Shown here: positions 8,474 to 23,569 of the stretch, in pieces
Layout of the letters: every line of letters starts with the position of its first letter
How positions within the stretch are numbered: the stretch's first letter is position 1
NCBI GenBank assembly: GCA_019359325.1
Contig: JAHHHN010000004.1
Location: forward strand, 266,026 to 298,025
Length of the DNA: 32,000 bases
Direction of reading: 5' to 3'
Origin: Mojavia pulchra JT2-VF2
Lineage (GTDB): Bacteria > Cyanobacteriota > Cyanobacteriia > Cyanobacteriales > Nostocaceae
Translations under genes and position numbers: made by a program
Notes under the pieces: model-generated
Told to the model about the DNA's origin: nothing
The model's input: only the letters and a program-made list of their open reading frames with translations
Databases searched by the model: none

Positions 8474-8515
8474 AATTACGAATTACGAATTACGAATTAT
8501 GAATTACGAATTACG
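8474..8515 (+). repeat. heptanucleotide tandem repeat (AATTACG x6, STRR-like) containing the methyltransferase start codon
   Basis: The six units are 8474-8480, 8481-8487, 8488-8494, 8495-8501 (variant AATTATG), 8502-8508 and 8509-8515. The C-to-T variant in unit 4 creates the ATG at 8499..8501. Confidence 0.95.
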
Positions 8516-8752
8516 GCCAATTGCAGTTGACTTGTTCGCTGGTGCGGGTGGCATGACCCTTGGTTTTGAACAAGCTGGCTTTGATGTCCTTGCATCTGTG
8601 GAAATTGACCCTATCCATTGTGCTATCCACGAATTTAACTTTCCTTTCTGGACAGTGCTATGTCAAAGCGTTGTGGAAACAACAGGGGAAGAGATTAGAA
8701 AGCGATCCGAGATTGGCGATCGCGACATTGATGTAGTAATTTGTGGCTCACC
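8499..8752 (+). pseudogene. dcm: 5' fragment of a C5-cytosine DNA methyltransferase interrupted by the inserted element
   Basis: The fragment encodes MNYELRPIAVDLFAGAGGMTLGFEQAGF (motif I) and continues to ...DVVICGSP. It breaks inside motif IV, after which the frame reads element DNA (YNNNNFIFHNLEK...). Confidence 0.9.
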
Positions 8753-8772
8753 TTATAACAACAACAATTTTA

Positions 8773-8783
8773 TATTCCACAAT
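8773..8783 (+). repeat. left subterminal inverted repeat TATTCCACAAT (candidate recombinase-binding site)
   Basis: It is the exact reverse complement of 22519..22529. The 8-mer core TTCCACAA recurs in direct orientation at 8841..8848. Confidence 0.75.
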
Positions 8784-8856
8784 TTAGAAAAAATAACAAC
8801 AAGTAGGCTAATCTTCATGGTAGAGTTACTCTATTAAATCTTCCACAAAGTAGAAA

Positions 8857-9969
8857 GTGATAAGCCTAGAAAGAGCAATTGATCCTCAAACAGAGGAAAG
8901 ATTTTGCTGCGTATTTGACACAGACACATGCTTGCCAATAGAACCCATCCAGCGATACTTAAACTACTGCCGTAAGCGTCAATTAGCAGCTAACACCGTT
9001 AACACTTATGCTTGCCGATTAGTAGATTTCTGGCAGTGGCTAGAATATAAATCTCTTAACTGGCAAGATGTAGGACTCCAAGAACTGGCTGATTTTGTTA
9101 ACTGGTATCTCCTTGGTGGCGAAGTAGAAGTCATCTCCGAAGAAGTACGGGAAATTGTTTCCAAACGTAGCCCAAAAACAGTCAATCAAGCAGTTACAGC
9201 TATACAAGGACTCTATGAATTCCACATTGTAGAAGGTAGGATTGACGAAAAGCTTTTTACCAAATTGGTTCATGGATGGGGCAAACGAGGTGGTTTCTTA
9301 CGGGGCATAGTTAAAAGCACCCCAGAAAAACGCAAACGGATTAAAGTAAAAGAGCCAAAAATCTTCCCTGGTTGTCTGACCGACGAACAAGTAGGTCAAC
9401 TAGCAAATGCCTGTTACAGCTACAGAGATAGGCTGTTAGTCATGCTACTGAGAGAAACGGGAATGCGGAGGGGAGAACTATTAGGCTTACATTTAGTAGA
9501 CGTACAAGACTTTGATACTAGAGGAAGAATTAGAGTTGTAAGGCGGGACAATAATCCCAATGGTGCAATAGCTAAAGGCACAGAAAGAGAAATACCAGTC
9601 CTTCATAACAGAGAGGCGGTTCAAGAAACTTTTCATGCTTATCTATTAGAAGAATATCCCCCAGAAGCAGAAAAACTCGGACATGGGATGCTGTTCGTTA
9701 ATTTGGATAGCAAGTATGTTGGAAAACCCATGACCAGTGCAAGGTTAAATAGTCTGTTTTATCAACTCAAAGATAGAACAGGAATTGAGGTACATCCTCA
9801 TTTGTTCAGACATACTTTCGCTACTAGAATGCTCCAAGCTGGTTATGCCGATCACTACGTACAGCAACTATTGGGGCATAGTTCGATTGTGACTACTAAA
9901 GATATCTATTCTCATGTACTGAATGAAATGAGTCTAGATGTTTATTTATCAGCAGATGAGTCAAAATAA
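8857..9969 (+). CDS. tyrosine recombinase/integrase, first of trio (GinA/TnpA-like position)
   Basis: GTG start. An N-terminal SAM-like core-binding domain (ANTVNTYACRLVDFWQWL) is followed by catalytic residues in ETGMRRGELLGL (R), HPHLFRHTFAT (H-x-x-R) and LLGHSSIVTTKDIYSHV (H...Y). Confidence 0.9.
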   Translation: MISLERAIDPQTEERFCCVFDTDTCLPIEPIQRYLNYCRKRQLAANTVNTYACRLVDFWQWLEYKSLNWQDVGLQELADFVNWYLLGGEVEVISEEVREIVSKRSPKTVNQAVTAIQGLYEFHIVEGRIDEKLFTKLVHGWGKRGGFLRGIVKSTPEKRKRIKVKEPKIFPGCLTDEQVGQLANACYSYRDRLLVMLLRETGMRRGELLGLHLVDVQDFDTRGRIRVVRRDNNPNGAIAKGTEREIPVLHNREAVQETFHAYLLEEYPPEAEKLGHGMLFVNLDSKYVGKPMTSARLNSLFYQLKDRTGIEVHPHLFRHTFATRMLQAGYADHYVQQLLGHSSIVTTKDIYSHVLNEMSLDVYLSADESK

Positions 9970-9971
9970 TT

Positions 9972-21952: not shown

Positions 21953-21992
21953 AAAGGCGATCGTCCTCCGGCAAGAGTATGCGATCGCCTTT
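21953..21992. terminator. HIP1-containing hairpin, candidate bidirectional terminator
   Basis: AAAGGCGATCG (21953..21963) pairs perfectly with CGATCGCCTTT (21982..21992) around an 18-nt loop. A T-run follows on the minus-strand reading (TTTTTGATG). Confidence 0.4.
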
Positions 21993-22018
21993 TAAACCCC
22001 GTTAATGAGGTTACTTAA

Positions 22019-22321
22019 ATGATTGTACAAGAAGAGTTCGATGACGAAACCTCGGCTCAATCAGAGTTTGAGGAATACATTGACCAGCTTGCTGAAACAA
22101 TAGCGCCAGAAATTGAGATCGATTCAGTACCAGATGAACTCGGAGAACTGTATCGAGTGTGGAATAGCTATCATCTGCTGGGAACTTTTTATCAGAACCT
22201 TGAAGGCAAATGGGTCGCACAAGCCTGTAATAGAGATGAAAGACCTTGTTGCGACACCCCTGAATTAGCACAGCTTTTTATAATTGCTGTAAACGGGTTG
22301 CTAGTTGCAGATGTAGCGTAA
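22019..22321 (+). CDS. small, strongly acidic hypothetical protein (100 aa)
   Basis: GAGG lies 8 nt upstream of the ATG. The first 45 residues carry about 16 D/E and no K/R (MIVQEEFDDETSAQSEFEEYIDQLAETIAPEIEIDSVPDELGELY). A strong terminator follows. The antisense ORF 22011..22271 looks like a shadow. Confidence 0.6.
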   Translation: MIVQEEFDDETSAQSEFEEYIDQLAETIAPEIEIDSVPDELGELYRVWNSYHLLGTFYQNLEGKWVAQACNRDERPCCDTPELAQLFIIAVNGLLVADVA

Positions 22322-22360
22322 TACATAATTACTTTTTATACACCAATTTTCCATCACCTA

Positions 22361-22391
22361 GAGACGTGCATTTAAGCACGTCTCTTTTTTG
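22361..22391 (+). terminator. rho-independent terminator
   Basis: GAGACGTGC (22361..22369), a 6-nt loop ATTTAA, then GCACGTCTC (22376..22384) form a perfect 9-bp GC-rich stem followed by TTTTTTG. Confidence 0.85.
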
Positions 22392-22542
22392 TTTGAAGCT
22401 TTTTATAAATAGAACTATCTCCAATAATTAAATAAATATAAAATTGGATTTTTCATAGCTTGATTTAGCTTACTTTGTAGAAGGTAAATCTAAAATCCTT
22501 GATTTGACGTAATTTTACATTGTGGAATAACTATAATCCACC
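22392..22542 (+). other. non-coding AT-rich right end of the element
   Basis: There is no credible ORF and the stretch is visibly AT-rich (tttataaatagaactatctccaataattaaataaatataaaattgg...). It contains the right inverted repeat and a degenerate second copy TTGTAGAA at 22475..22482. Confidence 0.7.
22519..22529 (+). repeat. right subterminal inverted repeat ATTGTGGAATA
   Basis: It is the exact reverse complement of 8773..8783 and lies 13 nt inside the right junction. Confidence 0.75.
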
Positions 22543-23569
22543 CTGTCAAGGGTTTTCGCTTATTGGTAAAAGAGCTTTTGACGATCCGCGCAATTCTTTA
22601 GTATTTCACTTTCATCGATTAGTTTTGGAGCTACAACCGAAATTTTTTGTCATGGAAAATGTTCGGGGTATTACAGTCGGTGAACATAAACAAATACTTA
22701 AAACCTTAATTAACGAGTTTAAAATTAAAGGTTATCAGGTAGAAGAAAATTACCAAGTTCTTAACGCCGCTTATTATGGAGTACCACAGTCTCGTGAGAG
22801 ATTATTTCTCATTGGTGCTAGAGAAGATGTTAAATTACCGAAATACCCCCAGCCAATTACGCAACCCGCAAAGCCTAACGATTCTACACAGCAAAATTCC
22901 TTGGTTTTACCGTTCGGCCCCACAGTATGGGACGCAATTAAAGATATTCCCGAAGTAGAAAACTATTCAGAGTTATTAGTAAGAGATTGGGTAGTGGCAG
23001 AGTATGGCAAACCTAGTAACTATGCTCTGACACTTCGCGGCATCGCTACTTTAGAAAATGATTATTCCTACGAACGTGAATTTGATTCTCGAATTCTCTC
23101 TTCCAGTCTTCGCACAAAACACTCAACTGCAACTATTGAACGTTTTACTGCTACAGTTCCAGGAGAAAGAGAACCCATTAGTCGTTTTCATAAGCTGCAT
23201 CCTGGCGGTGTTTGTAACACCTTAAGAGCAGGAACAGACAAGTATAAAGGTTCTTTCACCTCTCCTAGACCGATTCATCCATTCACACCCCGATGTATCA
23301 CGGTAAGAGAAGCAGCACGCCTGCATTCTTACCCCGACTGGTTTAGATTTCATATGACAAAATGGCACGGTTTTCGGCAAGTGGGTAACTCTGTACCTCC
23401 ATTGCTAGCAAAGGCTGTAGCTACTGAAATTATTCGTCAATTAAATGTGTTACCTAGCAAGCCAAGCGTCCGATATAAATTGGGTTTGGAGAGCTTGCTT
23501 CAACTTAATATGTCGCAAGCAGCGCAACGTTACAGCATAATTATGAATTATGAATTACAACAGACTTAA
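22543..23569 (+). pseudogene. dcm: 3' fragment of the interrupted C5-cytosine DNA methyltransferase
   Basis: It continues motif IV (P)CQGFSLIGKRAFDDPRN, then MENV, QSRERLFLIG, TLRAGT, PRCITVREAARLHSYPDWFRF and GNSVPPLLAKAVA. The TTG at 22520 and the WNNYN residues in the ORF track are element DNA, not a real start. Confidence 0.9.
23539..23558 (+). repeat. second copy of the heptamer repeat at the 3' end of the methyltransferase gene
   Basis: AATTATGAATTATGAATTAC (23539..23558) matches AATTATGAATTACGAATTAC (8495..8514) at 19/20 positions. Confidence 0.85.

Follow-up and report, generated by a model that had tools for sequence, protein, structure and literature searches.

What separates the two parts of a cytosine C5-methyltransferase gene in the genome of Mojavia pulchra JT2-VF2, a heterocyst-forming member of the Nostocales? 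The question is raised by a 32,000-nucleotide stretch of contig JAHHHN010000004.1 (hereafter the window, numbered from its first letter), in which two open reading frames (ORFs), 8499..8837 and 22520..23569, flank a 13,790-bp insert at 8753..22542. It is very probable that this 13.8-kb insert is an integrative transposon of the Tn554 family, placed by conservative tyrosine-recombinase recombination in the motif IV DNA of an lpxB-adjacent C5-methyltransferase gene. The Tn554-type mechanism is already known; what this analysis adds is the identity of the element, its 6-bp spacer mechanism, a target specificity at the level of the motif, and a paralogous cargo gene.

Both ORFs are present as an initial annotation of this DNA had described them. 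The upstream one encodes 112 aa, running from motif I into VVICGSP and then into unrelated residues, and the downstream one encodes 349 aa, opening with a few unrelated codons before PCQGFSLIGKR. The break in the host gene falls between the second and third bases of the Pro codon of motif IV (Pro-Cys-Gln), and the two parts of the gene are as follows.

8499..8752, + strand: N-terminal host C5-methyltransferase fragment, from motif I (DLFAGAGG) to VVICGSP, ending two bases into the Pro codon
22543..23569, + strand: C-terminal host C5-methyltransferase fragment, from the third base of the Pro codon through CQGFS, ENV, QxRxR and GNSVPP to the stop codon

Joined directly, the fragments give 1281 nt, or 426 codons plus a stop, reading VVICGSPCQGFS across the join and containing motif I (FxGxGG), motif IV (PCQ), ENV, QxRxR and GNSVPP in that order. 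The colinearity first noticed with an intact 425-aa paralogue inside the insert (14095..15372) is borne out by 53% identity over 413 aa, a likeness well beyond chance. The left junction, 8752^8753, reads GGCTCACC^TTATAAC (^ marks the junction), and the right one, 22542^22543, reads TAATCCACC^CTGTCAAGG.

Uninterrupted homologues with this join, for which the initial annotation had called, are abundant. A protein search with the joined sequence returned thousands of homologues, the best of which are full-length proteins from Nostoc, Calothrix, Tolypothrix and others at 80–87% identity and 96–98% coverage. In a genome scan, all 80 of the 80 best orthologous loci were uninterrupted (69–86% identity), with matches spanning residues ~1–6 to 411–424 of the join, and lpxB lies directly upstream in most of them, as it does in the window (lpxB, 7151..8377). 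Because uninterrupted orthologues share this synteny, the fragments are halves of one lpxB-adjacent gene and do not derive from different genes; the two "partial methyltransferase" annotations are best treated as a single interrupted gene. That gene is conserved across cyanobacterial orders, and the empty sites of its orthologues read GGCTCACC(A/T/C/G)TGTCAAGG. Heptamer tandem repeats, AATTACG x6 (8474..8515) and AATTATG x2.7 (23539..23557), overlap its start codon and its last codons, respectively, and because they overlap both gene ends the protein starts and ends with MNYEL.

The left end of the insert carries four genes that are all full length and agree in length with those of relatives.

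8857..9969, + strand: TnpA-like tyrosine recombinase, 370 aa; Pfam Phage_integrase, E=6e-31; full R..HxxR..H..Y set
9972..11414, + strand: TnpB-like tyrosine recombinase of 480 aa (paralogue 1), Cys cluster at the C-terminus; Pfam Phage_integrase, E=3e-8
11414..13231, + strand: large TnpB-like tyrosine recombinase of 605 aa (paralogue 2), zinc-ribbon-like region at the N-terminus and Cys cluster at the C-terminus; Phage_integrase match at its cut-off
13224..14105, + strand: TnpC-like DUF6262 protein, 293 aa; Pfam DUF6262, E=1.4e-12, 48 bits against a cut-off of 29

The reference for comparison was a genuine copy of Tn554 from a plasmid record (L154), which contains tnpA, tnpB, tnpC, ant(9) and ermA and has a RadC-family gene adjoining it. 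Each of the four proteins has a counterpart there. The 370-aa protein matches TnpA (30% identity over 328 aa, E=1e-44), both the 605-aa protein (22% over 455 aa, E=2e-19, Cys cluster included) and the 480-aa protein (23% over 324 aa, E=1e-12) match TnpB, and the 293-aa DUF6262 protein matches TnpC (30% over 110 aa, E=5e-10). The 605-aa protein also has tblastn matches annotated as "Tn554 family transposase B", and TnpC of the Tn554-like Tn6188 is itself annotated as DUF6262 (PMC11947258). Given this homology to TnpA, TnpB and TnpC and the DUF6262 assignment, the module is of Tn554 type with a duplicated TnpB. In all cyanobacterial relatives examined, the tnpA-like gene is separated from the tnpC-like one by two TnpB paralogues, in place of the three-gene tnpABC arrangement; of the features that define the Tn554 family, TnpA, TnpB, TnpC/DUF6262 and site-specific insertion at a 6-bp core are thus found here, and the three-gene module is not.

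All three recombinases keep both Arg residues, the late His and the Tyr invariant in alignments of 28–43 relatives. For the two larger proteins the catalytic residues were read from family conservation: in the 605-aa protein R, R, H and Y are kept, with Arg311 invariant in 28 relatives, and in the 480-aa protein the Arg of GCR, the HxxR, the H and the Y are invariant in 33. Searches of PDB sequences with these two proteins gave no match. No serine recombinase occurs among the ORFs or Pfam matches of 8753..22542, and no capsid, terminase or conjugation gene among those of the window. A prophage was considered and dropped, viral contigs holding only generic, 28%-identical integrases and no close relative; a tRNA-targeting island was ruled out by the absence of tRNA, tmRNA and Rfam features from the window.

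The position of the insert recurs elsewhere. Five insertions in three non-orthologous methyltransferase genes all lie after the second base of the motif IV Pro codon and in one orientation. Together with the full-length module, this recurrence upholds the initial view of the locus as a product of site-specific integration and not of decay. The insertions are listed below; MAG denotes a metagenome-assembled genome.

Window: lpxB-adjacent gene; left junction GGCTCACC^TTATAAC
Nostoc sp. T09 and an independent run (L081, L082): same lpxB-adjacent gene; left junction GGGAGTCC^TTATAAC, in which the Ser codon differs
Lichen-associated Nostoc MAG: same lpxB-adjacent gene; left junction GGCTCACC^TTATAAC
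Nostoc sp. FACHB-888 (L088): unrelated Dcm-type gene (MKAVLSLFSGIGG...FDILCGGFP^); left junction GGGGTTCC^TTATAAC
Calothrix sp. HK-06 (L087): third methyltransferase; left junction CACC^TTATAAC at the contig end; right junction ...ACATAA-TTCACC-TTGCCAAGATTTT (TTCACC-TTGCCAAGA), reading SPCQDFSS...

Common to these targets is the right arm, YTGYCAAGRTTTT (C-Q-G/D-F), also given as TGYCAAGRTTTT, whereas the spacer and the left arm vary. The right arm may accordingly be read, on this comparison of sites, as the probable main determinant of recognition, and the target beyond the earlier description would be the motif itself rather than one gene. The searchable literature, which is incomplete, contains no description of a mobile element with the PCQ codons of C5-methyltransferase genes as its attachment site. 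The FACHB-888 target (L088 1..1352) lies behind a phage-like DnaB, only 43% identical to the DnaB of the element, and a 131-aa ORF whose translation reads like an ASCH-type protein; this target probably belongs to another mobile element or a prophage.

The ends of the element and the hexamers that adjoin them are as follows.

8747..8752, + strand: attL crossover spacer CTCACC, host-type Ser-Pro codons; orthologous empty sites also read CTCACC
8753..8856, + strand: element left end, GC 26%; terminal TTATA (8753..8757), conserved TTATAACAACAAC, two TTCYACAA repeats (8775..8782 and 8841..8848)
22337..22536, + strand: AT-rich element right end, GC 27%; two inverted repeats TTGTRGAA (22475..22482 and 22520..22527), terminal TATAA (22532..22536)
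22537..22542, + strand: attR spacer TCCACC, in frame as Pro-Pro codons

The element starts with TTATAACAACAAC and finishes with ...ATTGTGGAATAACTATAA, a boundary pattern of TTATAACAAC...TATAA in which the terminal inverted repeats amount to only 5 bp (TTATA and TATAA). On the + strand of the whole 32 kb, TTCYACAA occurs only twice, both times within the left 100 bp of the element, and the rightmost 70 bp contain two copies of its inverse; it is plausible that these repeats are the binding sites of the recombinases. The tetranucleotide CACC is found at both junctions (8749..8752 and 22539..22542), as the initial annotation had pointed out, and is here refined to a part of a 6-bp spacer. In its place T09 has GTCC and FACHB-888 has TCCC, and relatives have 6-bp spacers, which rules out CACC as the crossover core; it is the portion common to two non-identical spacers, CTCACC and TCCACC. 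The same arrangement is seen in metagenome relatives with both junctions, for which the hexamers directly outside TTATA and TATAA were compared.

L103: attL TAGTCC, attR TAGTCC
L124: attL TGATCT, attR TGATCT
L128: attL CATCTG, attR CATCTG
L119: attL GGTCCA, attR GGACCA

Such paired hexamers are the signature of conservative recombination across a mismatch-tolerant 6-bp overlap. Tn554 and SEs (integrative elements that circularize in a strand-biased manner) likewise use a 6-bp core or spacer in which mismatches are tolerated (PMC10214605), and in C. botulinum the attB/attP of a Tn554-type element that bears DUF6262 measures 6 bp and includes a single mismatch (PMC10868621). Read in frame, TCCACC is (G)GT-CCA-CC, or Gly-Pro-Pro, as in the GPPCQ form that motif IV commonly takes, and the cargo methyltransferase of the Calothrix element (L087) has GGTCCACCTTGT at the equivalent place. 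By analogy with those systems, TCCACC may be the footprint of an earlier methyltransferase target of the GPPCQ type.

Evidence for movement of the element comes from a comparison of the window with Nostoc sp. T09, by nucleotide identity and by differences at four-fold degenerate sites.

Host genes bamA, lpxC, lpxA and lpxB: 83% nucleotide identity for lpxB; four-fold differences 0.30–0.43
N-terminal methyltransferase fragment: 87% nucleotide identity; four-fold differences 0.56
Six element genes: 90–97% nucleotide identity; four-fold differences 0.08–0.16

Synonymous divergence is therefore 3–5 times lower in the element than in the flanking host DNA, and identity jumps exactly at 8752^8753. 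Because the element has diverged so little relative to its flanks, it must have reached each lineage on its own, or replaced itself, long after the divergence of the hosts; the comparison indicates horizontal arrival after the Mojavia/T09 split, apparently by independent and targeted acquisition. That the N-terminal fragment travelled with the element is ruled out by its 87% identity, its saturated synonymous sites and the identity step at the junction. Part of the 480-aa gene (window 10600..11000) falls to 82–85% identity with the T09 copy (L081), against 94–98% in the rest of the element, which hints at a possible mosaic exchange between elements at this gene.

Base composition also sets the element apart. 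The backbone (8753..16700) has a GC content of 0.37, compared with 0.44 in the host flanks. The HIP1 octamer GCGATCGC occurs 30 times in the window, where 0.1 would be expected, and about once per kb in the host flanks; only 2 copies lie in the backbone, and 10 lie in the restriction-modification cargo (16838..21988). This distribution suggests that backbone and cargo differ in history. In the lichen Nostoc MAG, the upstream fragment at the same site contains stop codons, and the element has internal deletions and an insertion sequence (IS) within its TnpA-like gene, from which it follows that insertions can become fixed and decay. The comparison bears out the earlier description of the window insertion as recent: both gene halves and all four recombination genes are intact here, which supports a comparatively young insertion. 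The accompanying suggestion that it is reversible may also be correct.

A sequence of events consistent with these observations can be proposed. The inverted termini and the subterminal TTCYACAA repeats would serve as binding sites for the recombinases, which would depend mainly on the right half of the target for recognition. Integration would leave the host CTCACC at attL and the TCCACC of the prior target at attR; it would inactivate the host methyltransferase, and the element would express its own paralogous C5-methyltransferase. Recombination between attL and attR would then yield a circle and the restored 426-codon gene, in which either spacer keeps the frame, giving GSPCQ or GPPCQ according to the one retained. 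The circular form may replicate, as the DnaB helicase of the element suggests.

Several points weigh against this account. The module has low identity to the Tn554 proteins (22–30%) and four genes instead of three. The carried-over spacer leans on the analogy with Tn554 and SEs, and the right junction is known in only two of the five insertions, those of the window and of L087. Neither an excised circle nor a restored attB nor a polymorphic empty site was found for Mojavia pulchra JT2-VF2, and the exact restored proteins, with GSPCQ or GPPCQ, are absent from a collection of 15 billion proteins. Finally, relatives with TnpA proteins 72–88% identical insert in many other sequences, and target specificity may be looser than the five cases imply.

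The alternative that fares best holds that the element is fixed and immobile, the split gene being a young pseudogene whose role has passed to the cargo methyltransferase and which is never restored. The decayed copy in the lichen Nostoc, the already broken type I restriction cargo of the window and the lack of a restored allele on record in the protein collection all speak for this possibility. It is nevertheless rather unlikely, because the four recombination genes are full length with their catalytic residues kept, both termini and both gene halves are intact, and the element has diverged by only 3–10% from the T09 copy.

Developmentally programmed excision, with the methyltransferase switched on in a particular cell type, would liken the insert to the heterocyst interruption elements of nifD (XisA), hupL (XisC) and fdxN (XisF). 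Those elements also lie within coding sequence in Nostocales and are removed by precise excision that rebuilds the gene; the present host forms heterocysts, excision would restore the frame, and interruption elements have been documented in many genes and not in nif genes alone (PMC4874684). The main text of that survey, however, makes no mention of methyltransferases, and the known elements depend on a single tyrosine (XisA or XisC) or serine (XisF) recombinase, unlike the four-gene Tn554-type module. The window element moved horizontally, and its relatives occupy phage-like and other methyltransferase genes as well as unrelated genes of non-heterocystous cyanobacteria. Maintained, programmed excision is also hard to square with the copy in another Nostoc that has decayed in place at this site, and this explanation is very improbable.

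Equally hard to credit is spread by natural transformation and homologous recombination through the methyltransferase flanks, by which the shared site would reflect common descent of one allele. The target gene is conserved at ~80–87% DNA identity, enough for some exchange, and one orthologous gene accounts for three of the five insertions. Yet the T09 flank keeps its host character as far as the junction (87% identity, four-fold differences of 0.56, Ser AGT versus TCA), and two insertions lie in non-homologous methyltransferase genes that have the motif alone in common. Because the element brought no flanking gene sequence along, homologous recombination is ruled out as the means of spread. 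The split is almost certainly no assembly or binning artefact, even though the source record is labelled a MAG, given that an independent Logan assembly (L086) has a right junction identical in every base, that the left junction occurs with the same element in the Nostoc sp. T09 assembly and another run (L081, L082), and that the contig spans 7.1 Mb.

Beyond the recombination module, the Tn554-type element contains the following cargo and backbone genes.

14095..15372, + strand: cargo C5-methyltransferase, 425 aa, intact; PF00145, E=6e-66; 53% identical to the interrupted gene
15365..16678, + strand: replicative helicase of the DnaB family, 437 aa; TIGR00665 score 444.7 bits (cut-off 385)
16858..19179, - strand: type I restriction subunit remnant, 773 aa; SWI2_SNF2 match from profile position 54, no HSDR_N
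19169..20731, - strand: HsdM type I methylase subunit, 520 aa; Pfam N6_Mtase, E=4e-111, and HsdM_N
20746..22321: small cargo ORFs, namely 201 aa (- strand), a 97-aa HTH-like ORF at 21597..21890 (+ strand) and 100 aa at 22019..22321 (+ strand)

The cargo methyltransferase retains FxGxGG, PCQ, ENV, QxRxR and GNSVPP in order, and its gene has 97% nucleotide identity with that of the T09 element. The Calothrix element (L087) carries a methyltransferase 61% identical to its own target, and the FACHB-888 element has a 70-aa remnant of such a gene. In both comparable cases, the window and Calothrix, the element thus carries a paralogue of the gene that it destroyed. This pairing fits a functional replacement that might make the insertion harmless or the host dependent on the element; alternatively, the cargo enzyme could change methylation specificity.

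A further copy of the cargo gene stands by itself. In a Trichormus MAG (L089 10000..11251), the slot adjacent to lpxB holds a gene with 94.4% DNA identity to the cargo gene and no element. The match extends from about the start codon to ~27 nt before the stop, and the Trichormus flanks are only 74–80% identical. Either the element captured a Trichormus-type allele or the cargo gene replaced the resident gene of Trichormus. Relatives of the cargo type are scattered in cyanobacteria, and the matches beyond these, at ~60–63%, include some proteins named from Proteobacteria.

DnaB is a conserved backbone gene of this clade of elements, L087 and L088 having proteins 88% identical to that of the window. 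Of the restriction-modification genes, hsdM is intact. The 773-aa remnant is missing its N-terminal nuclease domain as well as the beginning of the helicase domain, and its first ~60 residues, read by eye, resemble the start of HsdS; the T09 element has a complete, unrelated hsdR-hsdS-hsdM set beyond DnaB. The three small ORFs have no family match above cut-off.

How this element relates to described systems can be considered one system at a time. With Tn554 and its kin (Tn6188, Tn558/559; in Staphylococcus, Enterococcus and Listeria) it shares homologous TnpA, TnpB and TnpC in the same order, orientation and left-end position, site- and orientation-specific insertion within a gene (radC for Tn554), and a 6-bp core that tolerates mismatches, without long terminal repeats (PMC10214605, PMC10868621). 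It differs in having two TnpB paralogues, a TnpC of 293 rather than 125 aa and a DnaB backbone gene, in residing in a cyanobacterium and targeting the catalytic codons of several non-orthologous C5-methyltransferase genes, and in carrying a paralogous methyltransferase instead of antibiotic resistance.

GInts (ginABCD), compared here by their published description, also have a left-end operon of three tyrosine-recombinase-like genes and a small fourth gene, followed by cargo and a short AT-rich right end (PMC5385486). They show imperfect direct repeats at their junctions, att variants produced by 6-nt staggered exchange, and frequent restriction-modification cargo (PMC5385486). Their published distribution covers Proteobacteria, Verrucomicrobia, Bacteroidetes and Firmicutes. 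GinC, however, is without the first catalytic Arg (PMC5385486), which all three window recombinases keep, and GInts insert at gene ends (5' of an ABC transporter gene, 3' of ssb) and spare the product, in contrast to an element that cuts through an active site.

SEs resemble the window element in a four-gene left-end module with an ordinary and a large recombinase and a TnpC-like last gene, and in the 6-bp "fingerprint/footprint" spacer that is carried from site to site (PMC10214605). Their second protein, Tfp, lacks RHRY, residues that the 480-aa protein retains (R, HxxR, H, Y); the family models for GmtY and VPA1267-type proteins remain below threshold (NF040693, 39 bits versus 340; NF040697, 18 bits versus 90), and SEs are found only in Gammaproteobacteria. 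RIT elements consist of RitA, RitB and RitC with no fourth gene (PMC8138268), unlike the present proteins, which are homologous to TnpA and TnpB and are followed by a TnpC gene. Inteins and group I or II introns with homing endonucleases share the choice of the most conserved coding stretch of a target family, but the window element is unspliced, inactivates its host gene, uses tyrosine recombinases and brings a replacement gene. Taken together, the element probably works like Tn554, SEs and GInts and, by sequence, belongs to the Tn554 lineage as a cyanobacterial four-gene branch.

This branch extends well beyond the methyltransferase insertions. The large recombinase has at least 174 relatives, all of them cyanobacterial as far as they are named. 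Metagenome contigs gave no match to a DNA pattern of the left end, and a protein-based scan of them returned 58 loci. Elements whose TnpA-like protein is 72–88% identical have a common left end, TTATAACAACAA..., ~103 bp ahead of the gene, but are inserted in different sequences. Because close relatives occupy such varied sequences, target choice must change quickly within the family. More distant members (large recombinase ~55–58% identical) are minimal four-gene elements, several copies of which lie on Nostoc plasmids, and one metagenome sample holds two 5.7-kb copies of a minimal element that are 99.98% identical. A cyanobacterial tyrosine-recombinase element in comM has been noted in passing (PMC9881144).

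Target proteins in this wider family were provisionally identified by reading flanking translations; among insertions with a recognisable reading frame, several interrupt coding sequence. Members lie after GVGP of the helix-hairpin-helix of a putative RecD2-type helicase, twice in separate contigs (helicase-like: L104, L119, L115, L124), and after GIDAP of a nuclease-like protein, also twice in separate contigs (L134, L136). One is found at GGINSGKS, a P-loop-like stretch (L098), and some are within putative transposase genes. In two loci (L103, 6299/13133; L142, 244), elements sit inside the RxGExxGL catalytic box of the TnpA-like gene of another element, in opposite orientation, and since they lie within the TnpA-like genes of others, elements of this family disrupt each other.

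A broader proposal, which is tentative and somewhat less probable than its negation, is that the clade constitutes a "motif-homing" transposon that recognises the DNA of the catalytic Cys-Gln-Gly/Asp-Phe of any C5-methyltransferase, knocks the gene out and substitutes its own paralogue. If so, chromosomal orphan methyltransferase genes, phage-borne ones and those of other elements would all be open to invasion, with the outcome of a takeover of host cytosine methylation or of a weapon between mobile elements. Sister lineages would appear to target RecD2 GVGP, nuclease GIDAPE, the catalytic box of a sibling TnpA and a P-loop likewise, and the methyltransferase at the lpxB locus of Trichormus would represent a completed replacement.

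The Tn554-type assignment in itself extends the poorly understood Tn554/SE/GInt group of multi-recombinase elements to cyanobacteria, in a distinct four-gene form with two TnpB paralogues that appear catalytic. With the active-site codons of an enzyme family as its attachment site, a single specificity opens many unrelated genes. The element could rewrite host m5C methylation or hold it hostage, a matter relevant to restriction barriers and to the genetic tractability of Nostocales, and recombinases directed at a coding motif that is both short and predictable might attract interest as tools for integration. Relative to the initial annotation, what has been added is the type of element, the 6-bp spacer and the apparent targeting of the motif itself.

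Two neighbouring genes downstream of the methyltransferase complete the window. Immediately beyond it, on the - strand (23932..24954), is a gene for a 340-aa protein of the nucleotidyltransferase fold, with weak matches to the MntA antitoxin and ANT(9) below their cut-offs; it shows no synteny in the orthologous loci examined. A hybrid sensor kinase of 2213 aa follows at 25244..31885; in its gene a 276-bp unit is repeated in tandem ~10.6 times (25680..28617, 80% matches), and the copies resemble HAMP-type linker repeats.

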